Of a stretch of 64,000 bases of DNA, positions 21,006-60,650 are shown in pieces; position 1 is the stretch's first letter, and each line of letters begins with the position of its first letter. The DNA is from Armatimonadota bacterium (GTDB lineage: Bacteria; Bacillota; Desulfotomaculia; Desulfotomaculales; Nap2-2B): contig JAIMBK010000004.1 in assembly GCA_023511535.1 (NCBI GenBank), positions 340-64,339 of the forward strand. Direction: 5' to 3'. The position numbers and the translations under genes were made by a program. The notes under the pieces were generated by a model. It ran no database searches. It saw only the letters and a program-made list of their open reading frames with translations, and was not told where the DNA came from.

Positions 21006-21079
21006 GGCTTATTTCCGGCGCCTCAAACCCACTCCACTCCTCTTTTTTACTCGGACGCCCATTCTTCCCGGACGTTTAC

Positions 21080-21122
21080 TGCCTTTGTCCTTTGTTCCTT
21101 TGTCTCTTGTGCCTTTGTGCCT
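21080..21122. repeat. Tandem 7-8 nt units of the TGCCTTTG family
   Basis: The units read TGCCTTTG TCCTTTG TTCCTTTG TCTCTTG TGCCTTTG TGCCTAA. The last unit contains the dctM stop codon. Confidence 0.8.
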
Positions 21123-41972: not shown

Positions 41973-42015
41973 GAGTAAAGCCTCCCCCGGAAATAGCTTC
42001 TACCCTTCTTTTATC

Positions 42016-45159: not shown

Positions 45160-45215
45160 CTAATTCCCATCCCCCAATTCCTAATTCCTAACCCCTGATT
45201 CCTGATTTCTAATCC
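45160..45215. repeat. Tandem approx. 8-nt units of the AATTCCTAA family
   Basis: The sequence is CTAATTCCCATCCCCCAATTCCTAATTCCTAACCCCTGATTCCTGATTTCTAATCC. It covers the ahbC stop codon. Positions 45171-45204 match the reverse complement of 51007-51043 at about 31 of 33 positions. Confidence 0.85.
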
Positions 45216-46410: not shown

Positions 46411-46476
46411 AGGCACAAAGTAAGTATTTGCTTTTTCTGCCTCAGTTCCCTGGTGCCTTTGCGCCTTTGTGCCTAG
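46411..46476. repeat. Inverted copy plus tandem units of the TGCCTTTG family
   Basis: AGGCACAAAG (46411-20), a T-rich spacer, then TGCCTTTG CGCCTTTG TGCCTAG (46454-76). The outer 10-mers are reverse complements of each other. Confidence 0.8.
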
Positions 46477-48025: not shown

Positions 48026-48066
48026 CCCAATCGTGCTCCTCCGAAAACCCAGATTACCATCATCAT

Positions 48067-48091
48067 AAGTTAAGTGCCTGGCACTTAACTT
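48067..48091. repeat. Perfect 12+12 palindrome AAGTTAAGTGCC-T-GGCACTTAACTT spanning the hemC stop codon
   Basis: Read directly from the sequence. A near-identical copy is at 59330-59358. Confidence 0.85.
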
Positions 48092-49026
48092 AATTCAAAC
48101 TCCTGCCGGACCCGGGTTAAAATTTCGCCGGCCCCCTTCGCCAGCATCCGCCCGGCCAGTTCCTCCCCCAGGGCGGCGGCCTCTTCCGGCGGACCGCTGA
48201 TGCTCTCCCGGAGATAACGCTGCCCGTCCAGGGTAAGCACTACCCCTGTCAGATGAAGACGGCCGTTTTCAATCTGCCCCAGAGCGCCGATGGGCACCTG
48301 GCAGCCTCCTTCCAGCCGGCGTAAAAAAGCCCGCTCGGCGGTTACGGCCGGGCGCGCTTCGGGATCATCCAGCCCCGCCGCCAGCTGCCGGATTTCCTCG
48401 TCCCCTTCCCTGATTTCCACCCCGATCGAACCCTGCCCGACGGCAGGCAGGCAGATGGAAAAGGGAATCTTTTGCGTAATCTCCTTTTCCAGGCCGAGCC
48501 GGCAAATTCCGGCGTACGCCACCACCAGGGCGTCCAACTCCTGTTCCGCCAGCTTGCGCAGGCGGGTGGTCAGGTTTCCGCGGATGTCGACCATTTTTAA
48601 ATCCGGGCGAAAACGCAGCAACTGCGCCTTGCGGCGCAGACTGGAGGTGCCGAGGCATGCCCCCGGCGGCAAATCCTGCAAAGTCAGCCCCCGTTTGGAG
48701 ATCAGCACGTCCCCCGGGTACTCCCGGCGGCAAACCGCCCCGATCACCAGCCCGCCGGGCAGGCGCGTGGGAAGATCCTTCATGCTGTGCACCGCCAGGT
48801 CGCACTCCCCTGCCAGCAGGGCGTTTTCCAGTTCCTTTGTAAACAGGCCCTTGTCCCCGATCCTGGCCAGAGGTACGTTCAGGATATGGTCGCCCCTGGT
48901 TTTCATCCCGGCAATCCGGAAGCGGCGTCCGGGATGCTGCTTTTTGAGCTGCTCAACCACCCATTGGGCCTGCCAGAGGGCCAGCCTGCTCTCCCGGCTG
49001 CCCACCACAATCTCCTTGCGCACCAA
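48085..49026 (-). CDS. hemC: Hydroxymethylbilane synthase (porphobilinogen deaminase)
   Basis: The 313-aa ORF has VGSRESRLALWQA, TRGD and RGNL.TRL. Confidence 0.9.
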   Translation of the reverse strand: MVRKEIVVGSRESRLALWQAQWVVEQLKKQHPGRRFRIAGMKTRGDHILNVPLARIGDKGLFTKELENALLAGECDLAVHSMKDLPTRLPGGLVIGAVCRREYPGDVLISKRGLTLQDLPPGACLGTSSLRRKAQLLRFRPDLKMVDIRGNLTTRLRKLAEQELDALVVAYAGICRLGLEKEITQKIPFSICLPAVGQGSIGVEIREGDEEIRQLAAGLDDPEARPAVTAERAFLRRLEGGCQVPIGALGQIENGRLHLTGVVLTLDGQRYLRESISGPPEEAAALGEELAGRMLAKGAGEILTRVRQEFELS

Positions 49027-50990: not shown

Positions 50991-51006
50991 CAGTCTCCCT
51001 CGAAAA

Positions 51007-51043
51007 CAGGAATTAGGGGTTAGGAATTAGGAATTAGGGTTAG
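51007..51043. repeat. AATTCCTAA-family repeat in inverse orientation
   Basis: The sequence is CAGGAATTAGGGGTTAGGAATTAGGAATTAGGGTTAG. Confidence 0.85.
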
Positions 51044-54535: not shown

Positions 54536-54604
54536 AAATCGATCACCCCCTCGACAATGGGGCAGTCAATTTAAAAAGGCATAAAGTAAAAAATTTCCGT
54601 CATA

Positions 54605-54712
54605 TTTCTCTTTTTTGCCTTTGTGCCTTAGTGTCTTAGTGCCTTAGTGTCTTAGTGCCTTAGTGCCTGTTGCCTTTGTGCCTGTTGCCTTTGTGCCTGT
54701 TGCCTTTGTGCC
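54605..54712. repeat. About 14 tandem 7-8 nt units (TGCCTTTG / TGCCTTAG / TGTCTTAG / TGCCTGTT)
   Basis: Read directly from the sequence. The first half has 16-nt periodicity (TGCCTTAGTGTCTTAG). The second half has 15-nt periodicity (TGCCTGTTGCCTTTG). An inverted unit AAGGCATAAAG lies upstream, about 29-33 nt before the array. Confidence 0.9.
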
Positions 54713-54734
54713 TTTGTGCCTTTTTACCCCGGGA

Positions 54735-55133
54735 TTAATGTTTAAAAAGGGCCGCCAGATACGGGTAAAACACCAGTACCCCGATGATTACGGAATTAAT
54801 TGCGGCCAGCAGGACGGCCCCGGCGGCCACGTCTTTGGCGGCTTTGGCCAGGCGGTGGTGGCCGGGGCCGAAAAGGTCGACGGCCAGCTCAATGGCCGTA
54901 TTCAGCATTTCGGCAATAAACACAAGAAAAATGGCAAAAAGCAAAAAAAGAAACTCGCGGGCGGACAGCCGGAAAAGAAAAGCGGCCAGCAAGGTCACCA
55001 GTGCGGCCAGCAGATGAAGGCGGAAATTGCTTTGGGTCGACCAGGCGTAGCTGATCCCCGCGAGAGCTAAACTAAATTTTTCCTTAAGGCCGTTAGTTTT
55101 CGGCAACCTGGGAAATTTCTTTTTCTTCGCCAT
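54735..55133 (-). CDS. dgkA: Diacylglycerol / undecaprenol kinase
   Basis: The 132-aa ORF has 3 TM segments and the motif EMLNTAIELAVD. Confidence 0.8.
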   Translation of the reverse strand: MAKKKKFPRLPKTNGLKEKFSLALAGISYAWSTQSNFRLHLLAALVTLLAAFLFRLSAREFLFLLFAIFLVFIAEMLNTAIELAVDLFGPGHHRLAKAAKDVAAGAVLLAAINSVIIGVLVFYPYLAALFKH

Positions 55134-58331: not shown

Positions 58332-58988
58332 CTAACCGTTTGGGTTCCCATTTTCGTCCGCATTGTCGATGGCCAGAATAATCAGCCGGTAGGGTCCGTG
58401 CACCCCGATGGTAAGCACCCTTTCGATGTCGGCCGTCCGGCTGGGGCCGGTGATGATCGTCCAGTACGGAGGCGGGCCGCCGCCTTCCCCGGCCCGGGTG
58501 ATGGCGTCCCTTAAGGTGGGGACAATAGTGTCCGTGCGCAGGACGGCCAGATGTACGGGAGGCAGGGTGGACACCAGGCGGCTGGCCGCGTCTGTGGCGT
58601 TCTGGGCGATGCTGCCGGTTTCGGCGATGCCCAGTTCCATTTCGGAAACCCCCAAATCCGCCTCGGGAGCGTACCGGCGCAGTTTTTCCGTGTAAAAGGC
58701 GGCGCCGGCCTCTTGCGCCGCTTCGCCCGGCGCCAGCCTGGCGAGGAGAACGCCCGGAGCGGCAACGATCTTTCGGGGCGCCAGCGCCTGCAGGATTTCC
58801 CGTAATTTTTCCCTGGCCGCGCTCAAATTGCCCGCCCGGTGCACTTCCGCCGCCATGGCTTCGGCCATCCGGGCAAACAGCCGGTAGTTGCTTTCTGCTT
58901 TTGAATCCAGGGCAGTATTCGCCAAAGTCTTTTTCGCCTCCTCAGAAAATAGATTTTCATGATTAATGGAGAGAACGAACGTTCTCAT
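58332..58988 (-). CDS. lutC: Lactate utilisation protein LutC (LUD domain)
   Basis: The likely start is the ATG at 58988 (MRTFVLSINHEN), preceded by a GAGGGAG SD. The C-terminal segment is ITGPSRTADIE..GVHGP. Confidence 0.7.
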   Translation of the reverse strand: MRTFVLSINHENLFSEEAKKTLANTALDSKAESNYRLFARMAEAMAAEVHRAGNLSAAREKLREILQALAPRKIVAAPGVLLARLAPGEAAQEAGAAFYTEKLRRYAPEADLGVSEMELGIAETGSIAQNATDAASRLVSTLPPVHLAVLRTDTIVPTLRDAITRAGEGGGPPPYWTIITGPSRTADIERVLTIGVHGPYRLIILAIDNADENGNPNG

Positions 58989-59009
58989 GGGGAACTCCCT
59001 CGAAAATAG
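58953..59009 (-). repeat. Copy 2 of a 57-nt unit (SD + ATG + 12 codons); this copy is the functional lutC start
   Basis: Minus strand: TATTTTCGAGGGAGTTCCCCATGAGAACGTTCGTTCTCTCCATTAATCATGAAAAT. Confidence 0.75.
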
Positions 59010-59016
59010 TGTCATC

Positions 59017-59272
59017 GGGCTGGAATTGTCCGGCTCGCTCCGATGCTCCGGGTCGACCAGACATCAGCTTGCCGCGGAGCGAACCAGGCAGCGCTGCAAA
59101 ATGCGCACGAGACGTTAGTTTTTTAGCTATGCCGGTCTAACCAGCGATTATTGTCAGCACTTTTGCATAGTGGTATCTGCGCGTTTCGCGCTGCCGGTTC
59201 GCTTGCCGCGGCTGCGCTGTGTCTGGTTCCCGACCCTTCGCATATGTCGCTCGCCCGGACAAATTCCAGCCC
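59017..59272. mobile_element. 256-bp MITE-like element: two approx. 90-nt imperfect inverted-repeat arms around a 72-nt centre
   Basis: The termini are GGGCTGGAATTGTCCGG (59017-33) and CCGGACAAATTCCAGCCC (59255-72). Conserved inner blocks are GGGTCG, CCAGACA, GCCGCGG and AGCGAACC.GGCAGCGC. No credible ORF is present. Confidence 0.4.
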
Positions 59273-59274
59273 TC

Positions 59275-59332
59275 ATTTTCATTCTTTATGGAGAGGACGG
59301 CAGTCTTCATGGGCAACTCCTCAGAAAATAAG
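59275..59332 (-). repeat. Copy 1 of the 57-nt unit (SD + ATG + MKTAVLSIKNEN), separated from lutC by the IR element
   Basis: Minus strand: TATTTTCTGAGGAGTTGCCCATGAAGACTGCCGTCCTCTCCATAAAGAATGAAAAT. It is about 78% identical to copy 2. Confidence 0.75.
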
Positions 59333-59358
59333 TTAAGTGTCTGGCACTAGCTTAACTT
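59330..59358. repeat. Second copy of the AAGTTAAGTG..CTTAACTT palindrome, spanning the glcF-like stop codon
   Basis: The sequence is AAGTTAAGTGTCTGGCACTAGCTTAACTT. Confidence 0.8.
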
Positions 59359-60650
59359 AACCCGCTTTTTTCCTTTTGCGCGCGGGCGAGAAACTCCACG
59401 GTGTGCAGCACTTCGACGGCCAGGCCGGCTTTGGCCAGAGCCTCCGCCAGCTGCATCCGGCAGGCGCTGCAACCGGTAAGCACGGTTTGGGCGCCGGTTT
59501 GCCTGATGTCGGCCACCTTGGGGTTCAGCACCAGTTCGGACAGCCCCCGGTTGGTGAAGGTAAAGGCACCGGCTCCGCCGCAGCAGGTGGTGGGTTCCCG
59601 CAAAGGCCGAAAAACAGTTTCTGGAACCTTTTTAATCAGCTCCAGCGGCTGTTTGTAAACCCCCATTCCCCGGTCCAGGTGGCAGGGGCTGTGGTAGGTA
59701 ACTGTACCGGGAACCGGCCCCCATACCTCCGGCGCCCCTAAATTATATTTGATCAAAAAATCCGTCATGTCCATGGTTTTTTCCGCCAGCGTCCGCGCTC
59801 TTTCCCCCGGCTCGCCCGTCAGTAAGGCCGGATAGTAATGCAAAAAGGCCTCCCCGCAGGTCGGGCACACCGTCACCAGGGCGGCGCAGTCCACGCCGCT
59901 GAAAAGGCGCACCTGCTCTCCGGCAATTTTGCGCATCAGCTCCAGGTCGCCGTGGATGAAAACAGGCATCCCGCAGCAGTGCTGGGGCCGCGGCGTGACC
60001 ACCGTCACGCCGAAAGAGGTCAGCAGTTCCGTTGCCGCCCGGGCGGTTTGCGGATAAACGTAGTTGGCCAGGCACCCCGGGAAAAAGGCCACCTTCAGGC
60101 CGCCGGCGCCGGCCTCGCGGACAGTGCCGGGAGCGGGGGAAACGATCTCCGGAACAAGGTCGAGATAGGGGCGGGGCGCCAGCCGGGGCAAAATCCGGTC
60201 CCGGCCGGCCACCAGCCGGAAACGCGGCGACTGCCCGCCCGCGGGTTCCCGCCGGAAAAGCAAACCCTGCGTTTTCCCGGCCGCGCGCAGGGCCAGCCGG
60301 AAAAGGCGCGGGCGGCGGAGCAGCAGCGCGGCGGAGCGGAGCAGCCGGGGCAGGCCGCGTTTTTGGGCGGCGGCGGCGCGGGCGGCAATGATCAGCCGGT
60401 CGTAACGCACGCCGCTGGGGCAGTTCGCCATGCAGGCCAGGCAGGTCAGGCACTCTTCAAAGCGCCGGGCGATTTTCGGCGTGCAGTCGATTTCCCCCAG
60501 CAACACTGCCTCGGCCAGCCTGATCTTGCCCCGGGCGACCAGCGGCTCCTCCCGGGTCGCCTTATAAAGGGGGCAGACCGCCTGGCAGTTGCCGCACTTC
60601 ATGCACCGTAAAAGTTCTTCTTCCAGATCGGCCAGCTGAAAAGAACTCAC
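59352..60650 (-). CDS. GlcF/GlpC-like Fe-S oxidoreductase (2x[4Fe-4S] + two CCG domains), partner of the FAD-linked oxidase
   Basis: The 432-aa ORF has CMKCGNCQAVCP, CLTCLACMANCP, HCCGMP and TCCGGAG. Confidence 0.75.
   Translation of the reverse strand: MSSFQLADLEEELLRCMKCGNCQAVCPLYKATREEPLVARGKIRLAEAVLLGEIDCTPKIARRFEECLTCLACMANCPSGVRYDRLIIAARAAAAQKRGLPRLLRSAALLLRRPRLFRLALRAAGKTQGLLFRREPAGGQSPRFRLVAGRDRILPRLAPRPYLDLVPEIVSPAPGTVREAGAGGLKVAFFPGCLANYVYPQTARAATELLTSFGVTVVTPRPQHCCGMPVFIHGDLELMRKIAGEQVRLFSGVDCAALVTVCPTCGEAFLHYYPALLTGEPGERARTLAEKTMDMTDFLIKYNLGAPEVWGPVPGTVTYHSPCHLDRGMGVYKQPLELIKKVPETVFRPLREPTTCCGGAGAFTFTNRGLSELVLNPKVADIRQTGAQTVLTGCSACRMQLAEALAKAGLAVEVLHTVEFLARAQKEKSGLS

Follow-up and report, generated by a model that had tools for sequence, protein, structure and literature searches.

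What kind of DNA separates the D-lactate half (glcDF) from the L-lactate half (lutCBA) of the lactate operon on contig JAIMBK010000004.1, of which a stretch of 64,000 nucleotides (from here on the window) was analyzed? The gene order, taken from a Pfam scan, is lactate permease, GlcD-like, GlcF-like, insert, LutC, LutB/A fusion and GntR/FCD regulator, and the insert contains a 256-nt inverted repeat that lies between two look-alikes of a translation start. In a preliminary description the inverted repeat had been seen either as a miniature transposable element with inverted repeats (MITE) between duplicated copies of the lutC start or as a structured RNA controlling the coupling of the two operon halves. 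All features of the locus are read on the minus strand, and coordinates are positions in the window.

We propose that the locus is very probably a stack of modules belonging to a non-autonomous, apparently mobile family of intergenic repeats, similar to MITE and repetitive extragenic palindromic (REP) elements and modular in the manner of BOX and BIME repeats, which resides on ribosome-binding sites (RBSs). The family has many copies, its presence or absence differs among relatives at two sites, direct repeats of one of its modules (the T motif) surround inserts, and copies stand beside start codons. We see in it a new family within a broadly familiar type of repeat, not a device specific to lutC.

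The insert between glcF and lutC

The glcF-like gene for an Fe-S subunit (59352-60650; Pfam CCG and Fer4; TAA stop at 59354-59352) overlaps with its last codons and its stop a diverged copy of a small palindromic module, M1 (TTAAGTTAAG..CTTAACT; 59331-59360). M1 is followed by T14 #1, TATTTTCTGAGGAG (59317-59330), a terminal motif bearing a Shine-Dalgarno (SD) sequence and the left member of a 14-nt direct repeat around the whole insert. Next come M3a, a 42-nt module TTGCCCATGAAGACTGCCGTCCTCTCCATAAAGAATGAAAAT (59275-59316) holding ATG 59310 of a 'MKTAVLSIKNEN' mini open reading frame (mini-ORF), a GA dinucleotide and the hairpin module (59017-59272), which is supported by its fold, a 13-copy alignment and nhmmer and is an imperfect palindrome of 256 nt with conserved termini and a variable apex. 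Its left end is GGGCTGGAATTTGTCCGG and its right end the reverse complement of this minus one T (17/18 match). A short right linker, GATGACAC (59009-59016), which in the alignment of copies with their flanks has elsewhere the long form GATGGGAAATGAT plus GGCAGAAG, leads to T14 #2, TATTTTCGAGGGAG (58995-59008), the consensus form and the usual 3' end of a hairpin unit, where the homology of other copies ends. The second M3, M3b (58953-58994), belongs to a different subfamily, is without hairpin and has an ATG (58988) in frame with lutC. After a single C there is T14 #3, again TATTTTCTGAGGAG (58938-58951), which matches T14 #1 in 14/14 positions and is the right member of the direct repeat. A 12-nt spacer then separates it from TTG 58925-58923, in frame with the ORF of the LUD-domain protein LutC (58332-58925). 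The inserted block, 365 nt in total, is made up of one M3a-hairpin-T14 unit and one hairpin-less M3b-T14 unit.

The 256-nt inverted-repeat element, the two units of about 57 nt and the third partial copy that had been described could all be reproduced: unit copy 1 (59330-59275) and unit copy 2 (59008-58953) are 77% identical over 56 ungapped nt at a spacing of 322 nt, and 58951-58938 matches the start of copy 1 in 14/14 positions. Besides this reproducible similarity there are, as shown below, arms that fold better than shuffled sequence, other copies of the element and two empty sites. A scan of 58800-59500 revealed no sigma-70-like promoter or terminator consensus, and an Rfam scan of 58500-59800 gave no family match, only two chance-level ones (E ~0.6-0.7) far under the gathering scores.

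A family of modules with many copies

The 18-nt terminus of the hairpin was scanned across one genome per species, which gave 114 loci. About 38 of these came from three 'Bacillota bacterium' metagenome-assembled genomes (MAGs) of a single study, MAG124 (JBFLZY01), MAG158 (JBFMBG01) and MAG242 (JBFMEJ01); the others are scattered single matches, as chance predicts for 17 specified bases. In the loci fetched from these three related MAGs we counted about 45 hairpin copies or fragments. Blastn and an nhmmer profile, the latter with 54 matches, all in the loci of the three MAGs plus one further locus (L038), thus bore out that the inverted repeat is a MITE-like multi-copy element. The window has one copy only, without a second hairpin anywhere in its 64 kb. 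A metagenome scan with the right 21-mer yielded 7 loci and with the left 26-mer none. Further full units are present on two JGI contigs, and by blastn and nhmmer the family is otherwise confined to the three MAGs, L038 and two JGI/ENA samples; a blastn search of a plasmid collection gave no match to the element.

The standard unit consists of T motif, M3, long hairpin, linker and T motif, and the order T, M3, hairpin (left arm first), T is kept in every unit. The T motif, TATTTTC-GAGGGAG, is 14-23 nt long (T14 or T23), is often preceded by GGCAGAAG and carries the SD sequence. Most copies match the window from 58995 to about 59330, that is T14 #1 and M3a through T14 #2, and in L031, L007, L087 and L027 the homology spans 58995-59318/59330 and ends there. 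Apart from full copies there are copies with a different apex, with a small MITE-like element nested in an arm, with internal deletions, and 'mini-hairpins' of which about 25 nt per terminus are kept.

Other modules also end in T14, namely CCCTAA/AATTCCTAA repeats, CCTTTGTGCC tandem repeats and M1. The M1 consensus, (G)TAAGTTAAGTGCCAGGCACTTAACTTA, is found at the same place in L115 (2951-2975) and L126 (2166-2190), and at other loci in L055, L082, L014, L005/L059, L064, L125 and near 48067 of the window, where a second M1 copy is followed by a diverged T23 (48040-48092, minus strand). M1 together with the T-rich start of T14 resembles a weak stem-loop with a U-tract.

The units that had been taken for duplicated lutC translation starts are themselves such modules, each composed of T14 plus M3 and shared by 20 or more unrelated loci; the alignment of T14-M3 comprises 20 distinct copies in total. 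M3a has exact copies (42/42) at unrelated loci in L031 and L064 (MAG242). M3b is 90-91% identical to copies in L062 (L062a, 91%), L064 (L064a, 90%) and L036 (90%) and 76% identical to M3a. To copies at other loci the two units are more similar (100% and 91%) than to each other (76%), and they are not duplicates of the lutC start. The mini-ORF (59310-59137, 57 amino acids) has no Pfam match and is frameshifted or shortened in other copies. When 5.8 billion proteins were searched with it for a real gene of which M3 could be the 5' end, one weak match of 44 amino acids but no parent gene was found. The two 56-nt units were also considered as template and variable repeat of a diversity-generating retroelement, which is out because they also differ at bases other than adenine. 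On inspection we dropped, too, the readings as integron attC, dif/Xer or CRISPR-like arrangements, there being no R'/R'' cores, no dif-like palindrome and no spacer-sized inserts.

Filled and empty sites

The hairpin of the window is 98, 97 and 96% identical to those of L043, L031 and L050, which are unrelated loci in MAG158 and MAG242. For the genes glcD-glcF and lutC-lutB, by contrast, MAG158 and the window share no more than 82-85% identity. An identity of 96-98% between copies in genomes that differ by about 15% points to a recent spread among co-occurring uncultured Desulfotomaculia-like bacteria.

The earlier suggestion to look for empty sites upstream of lutC proved fruitful, for presence and absence differ among relatives. 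In L126 (an ENA contig), the closest relative found, which is 97.4% identical across lutC-lutB, the spacer is uninterrupted and consists of M1, one T14, GCTAGAGAGACT and TTG; the one T14 present can be aligned with T14 #1 as well as with T14 #3 of the window. The lutC site of MAG158 (L115) is likewise empty, and both have one T14 and then the GCGAAAgggACT-TTG spacer as in the window. Variants of the site are a mini-hairpin in L118 and the right arm plus T motif only in L117 and L116. The identity to L126 changes abruptly where the repeat lies, being 90.8% toward glcD-glcF (61516-59317) and 97.4% toward lutC-lutB (58951-56168), which suggests a recombination breakpoint at or near the glcF-lutC repeat.

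The second polymorphic site is the RBS of hemL. In the window it is a solo T23, GGTAGAAGCTATTTCCGGGGGAG (41982-42004, minus strand), and by comparison with L086 this is an 'empty' site whose equivalent in MAG242 is filled: contig L086, 95% identical over 7.7 kb, has there M3, hairpin and a 13-nt linker, bracketed by two copies of the 23-mer GGTAGAAGCTATTTCCGGGGGAG with private variants common to both. In L127 (97% amino acid identity) the hemL RBS carries a CCCTAA-type repeat module and a consensus T14. More distant relatives have no T motif at the hemL RBS, and because of this absence the T motif at this site is taken as element-borne.

A 21-nt flanking direct repeat with private variants of its own is present in L123, and the direct repeats in L086 and L123 both begin 13 nt past the hairpin and end at the start of M3. 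Including the window there are thus three insertions with direct repeats of the T motif (14-23 nt) around them.

Position at ribosome-binding sites

For most right-hand T14 motifs the ATG, GTG or TTG of an ORF of at least 100 codons comes at a distance of 2-16 nt, and within T14-M3 an ATG stands 6 nt after the SD sequence. The window contains 8 T14-like motifs, with 2.1 expected and none of 100 shuffles reaching 8; 7 of the 8 belong to the minus strand, where a start codon or M3 follows closely on each of them. The genes downstream of units, among them lutC and hemL, are unrelated to each other. Others we take to be purD-, pheA-, sucD-, ybaB- and thiL-like, as read from their N-terminal sequences rather than from a family search. 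A functionally coherent set, as expected of a cis-regulatory RNA, is not formed by the downstream genes. The proposed structured RNA that would couple the D-lactate half to the L-lactate half finds no specific support, since the element precedes hemL and other genes, is absent from the spacer of the closest relative and has no Rfam match. A role in regulation specific to lutC or lactate is unlikely.

Where, then, does lutC start? The nearest LutC homologues, P0002 and P0004 (81 and 77% identical), begin with MANTALD, which corresponds to TTG 58925 of the window, downstream of both units; residue 37 of the long lutC ORF is where the LUD domain of Pfam starts; and empty lutC sites have T14 only, without M3 or the coding sequence for MKTAVLS/MRTFVLS. 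Because homologues and LUD domain start downstream and the empty sites lack M3, the MRTFVLSINHENLFSEEAKKT stretch is repeat-encoded. TTG 58925 is most likely the true start of lutC, and the GAGGAG(G) of T14 #3 most likely its real SD sequence, so that, as had been proposed, the insertion appears to leave lutC with an RBS that looks functional. ATG 58988 also has a good SD sequence (GAGGGAG, spacing 6 nt) and is in frame, and a LutC isoform with an N-terminal extension of 21 repeat-encoded amino acids, started there, is possible. The identical NCBI protein MCL6446898.1 (100%; 58332-58868, minus strand; 178 amino acids) starts at codon 41 of the long ORF; the homologues place the TTG start 19 codons upstream of this.

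From these positions we propose the following mechanism. A unit lies in sense orientation right upstream of a start codon and, as its terminal T motif with the SD sequence is then directly 5' of that codon, the downstream gene would be translated from it, while the upstream T motif would now face the ATG inside M3. For lutC this would mean translation mainly from TTG 58925 via T14 #3. The hairpin is presumably co-transcribed within the glcDF-lutCBA operon, there being no promoter or terminator consensus. The element would be selfish, tolerated because its terminal module supplies the SD sequence to the downstream gene or restores its RBS, and its mobilization would require an enzyme acting in trans. 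The conserved terminal motif of a repeat would thus double as the RBS of the following gene, and such an RBS-bearing end may explain how a structured insert of 300-400 nt can reside inside operons without killing expression.

Structure of the hairpin

Folded as RNA, the hairpin reaches -141 kcal/mol, as compared to -92.6 ± 4.8 kcal/mol for 200 dinucleotide shuffles (z = -10.1), and the arms are therefore far more stable than shuffled controls, a comparison that the preliminary description had called for. The opposite strand folds about as well (-138.9 kcal/mol, z = -9.1). Across 13 aligned copies the 72 pairs are paired to 98.2% (about 36% in slid controls), the outer 33 alignment columns are invariant or nearly so, and compensatory double changes occur at 9 pairs (33 cells), which none of 500 shuffles equals. 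The palindrome is maintained by compensatory change.

Single-sided changes leave a G-U pair on the sense strand at 15 pair positions and an A-C mismatch at 5. This excess is a weak hint of a constraint at the RNA level, and only a weak one because the copies are non-independent events. The small stem of M3 shows one covarying pair, too little for a claim. In the minimum free energy fold, AUUUUC of either T14 is a possible partner for GAAAAU at the 3' end of M3.

In the orthologous loci L012 (MAG158) and L083 (MAG124), and also in L066, L008, L113 and L013, the apical modules differ, one type being GCGCGAAACGCGCAG... and the other palindromic CAATTGAGAAGTGGGATGTGAGAAGT...CTCTCACCTCTCAATTG. Different apices in orthologous copies point to module swapping or gene conversion between copies. 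Several copies (L043 2029-2224, L017 172-388, L066 3936-4142, L097 2098-2246, L116 1-40 and L007 ~270-300) have hairpin arms without GGGCTGG termini and with another end module, ..GGAGCGACGGCAAACGAACGGCGGGCAAAGG, ahead of T14. Judged from these sequences even the 'terminal inverted repeat' of the hairpin appears to be an exchangeable module.

Another MITE-like element, some 90-150 nt long and bounded by the termini CCGGCACTCACCGG...CCAGTGAGTGCCGG, is nested, sometimes twice, in the arms of large hairpins (L036, e.g. 2186-2277, L012, L053, L085, L083, L097, L105) and stands alone at L105 694-888.

Points against a mobile element and alternative explanations

Several findings weigh against mobility as the explanation of the locus. 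Flanking T motifs are in 29 of 32 units no more alike than those of different copies, and since only three units show the duplication, this signal rests on few, presumably young, insertions. No short target-site duplication adjoins the inverted termini (..AAAATGA before GGGCTGG, GATG.. after CCAGCCC), nor is there a consistent direct repeat at these termini. Neither the window nor about 0.3 Mb of MAG loci contained a transposase or recombinase partner or an autonomous copy with GGGCTGGAATTTGTCCGG termini. The empty state of both polymorphic sites is accounted for by an exact deletion between T motifs no less than the filled state by an insertion. The strict co-orientation with genes and the G-U excess (15 vs 5) would be compatible with an RNA-level function, too. 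Solitary ends in L005, L014, L055, L082, L059, L062 and L032 were inspected as possible ends of an autonomous element and rejected; they are cut by repeat modules, not by a transposase gene.

Could the T motif itself be the site of action? It would then be an att-like site at which palindromic cassettes are inserted and excised by a site-specific recombinase or a widely staggered cutter, so that the system would home to RBSs and not be a MITE defined by terminal inverted repeats and a DDE transposase. At the lutC and hemL sites the borders of the insert coincide exactly with T motifs, and the repeats in L086 and L123 share the same borders. Close relatives have three states of the hemL RBS (T23 alone, hairpin unit, CCCTAA-repeat module), the varied cargo (hairpin, CCCTAA repeats, CCTTTGTGCC repeats, M1) always ends in T14 and its orientation relative to T is constant. 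Long direct repeats of 15-28 bp are known for some insertion sequences, e.g., the IS1202 family (bioRxiv 10.1101/2022.12.17.520857). However, a recombinase was not identified in the DNA examined, the flanking T motifs are non-identical in most copies, T measures only 14-23 nt and lacks palindromic symmetry, the ends of hairpin and unit do not start with TGT as IS1202-type ends do, and slippage or homologous deletion between T motifs could give the same empty sites. We regard this explanation as possible but doubtful. It is unlikely that T is a dedicated insertion and recombination site in the wider sense that cassettes home to, stack at and leave RBSs, replacing the native RBS and sometimes adding N-termini, and with no less reserve we note that such an RBS-targeting cassette system would be distinct from MITEs with terminal inverted repeats and target-site duplications, from REPINs and from integron cassettes. 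If true, homing of this kind would give selfish DNA an uncommon route to translation-initiation regions.

Rather improbable is that hairpin and flanks are a cis-acting RNA tuning the downstream gene, be it as RNase III or stability determinant, as decoupler of glcF and lutC translation or through sequestration of the SD sequence by M3. All copies are sense-oriented just 5' of start codons, there are 9 compensatory pairs and more G-U than A-C in the sense strand, GAAAAU of M3 pairs with AUUUUC of T14 in the predicted fold, and without terminator or promoter the region would be transcribed within the operon. But near-identical sequence precedes functionally unrelated genes and is absent from the glcF-lutC spacer of L126 and L115, both strands fold equally well, Rfam has no match, the apex is swapped between the orthologous copies L012 and L083, and covariation in the M3 hairpin is weak (one pair). 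An identity of 98% between species whose genes differ by 15% speaks for spread and not for vertical conservation. A generic role of the hairpin at the RNA level (processing, stability, translational decoupling) is possible, though nothing specific to the locus points to it.

That the contig was collapsed or chimerized at repeats is very improbable: the window does appear to derive from a MAG contig (78 kb, that of MCL6446898.1), and such repeats are often contig breakpoints (copies in L064 and L116 end contigs), but both flanks are syntenic with four relatives, and the independent assemblies L064 and L062 show the same module grammar and tandem stacking. The view originally favored, an insertion of a MITE into the 5' end of lutC with an in situ duplication of the initiation region that kept the gene intact, is hardly tenable any more, for although the hairpin stands between two directly repeated 56-nt units and the ATG of the second is in frame with lutC, units occur at 20 or more loci without lutC nearby, each resembles copies elsewhere (100%, 91%) more than the other (76%), empty lutC sites hold T14 but no M3, and LutC homologues start with MANTALD downstream of both units, not with MRTFVLSINHEN.

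Comparison with known repeats

The repeat family shares with MITEs the terminal inverted repeats, the small size, the lack of coding capacity, the multiple copies and the polymorphism of filled and empty sites (be it by insertion or by deletion). Like the foldback MITEs Correia of Neisseria and ERIC/IRU of enterobacteria, compared here partly by way of a review (PMC3184786), the element is small (~250 nt), non-coding and multi-copy, lies within transcription units, ends in conserved inverted repeats, forms a long imperfect hairpin and has internally deleted or nested derivatives that keep the termini. It differs from them in that there is no short target-site duplication (such as TA) at its termini, it keeps one orientation to genes, is accompanied by the asymmetric modules M3 and T motif at its flanks and has no known partner insertion sequence. 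Because of the missing short target-site duplication and partner we do not assign it to a named repeat family. A literature search on RBS-targeting MITEs or Desulfotomaculum repeats gave nothing specific.

Neisseria REP2 and the Borrelia IR are repeats right upstream of genes that contain an RBS, an ATG and internal stem-loops (PMC3184786). The element here also holds an RBS and an ATG immediately upstream of ORFs, plus stem-loops. REP2, however, which we compared by description only, has a promoter and no terminal inverted repeats and comes from another host lineage, whereas here no promoter consensus is found and a 256-nt palindrome dominates.

With the pneumococcal BOX (boxA-boxB-boxC) and the BIMEs of E. 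coli the family has in common interchangeable short modules in a fixed order, with number and variants differing from locus to locus. According to Croucher 2011, as cited in PMC3184786, BOX-type repeats can extend ORFs at the 5' end. The modules are different ones, and neither BOX nor BIME is defined by an SD-bearing terminal module that adjoins the start codon. REPIN/RAYT systems are alike in that two inverted arms form a hairpin with conserved pairing and are present in high copy number within a lineage, but the arms are about 90-110 nt long here and about 20-40 nt in REPs.

Insertion sequences of the IS1202 family generate direct repeats of 15-17 and 27-28 bp and have ends that begin with 5'-TGT or Ta/gT (bioRxiv 10.1101/2022.12.17.520857). 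They are a precedent for duplications of 14-23 nt at insertion. Their ends are unlike those of the hairpin (GGGCTGG.../...CCAGCCC) and of the unit (TTGCCC.../...AATGAT).

Host and consequences for annotation

The genes around lutC have their closest counterparts in Desulfotomaculia, the nearest named HemL being that of Desulfofundulus (75-76%), and the host appears from its sequences to be an uncultured Desulfotomaculia-like lineage of the Bacillota. The name 'Armatimonadota' on NCBI protein MCL6446898.1 is probably a binning label.

Repeat modules that supply both SD sequence and ATG create false or alternative starts, at this locus the 21-codon extension of lutC, and M1 supplies the last codons and the stop of glcF. 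Gene callers and operon predictions are likely to be misled in this way at many loci of the lineage.

Simple repeats in the window

Tandem repeats of 8/15 nt, CCTTTGTGCC(TGTTG) or on the gene strand GGCACAAAG, are found at 54611-54736, 21061-21122 and 46449-46474 of the window, the first of them upstream of a T14-like RBS (54546-54560). In the MAG loci L005, L059, L064 and L062 the CCTTTGTGCC repeats form a module between M3 or M1 and T14.

Repeats of the AATTCCTAA/CCCTAA type form a 38-nt inverted pair (45172-45209 and 51002-51039), 92% complementary and 5.8 kb apart, with T14 (50995-51009) and a start codon coming directly after the second member. Repeats of this type also precede T14 in L062 (3500-3545) and at the hemL RBS of L127.

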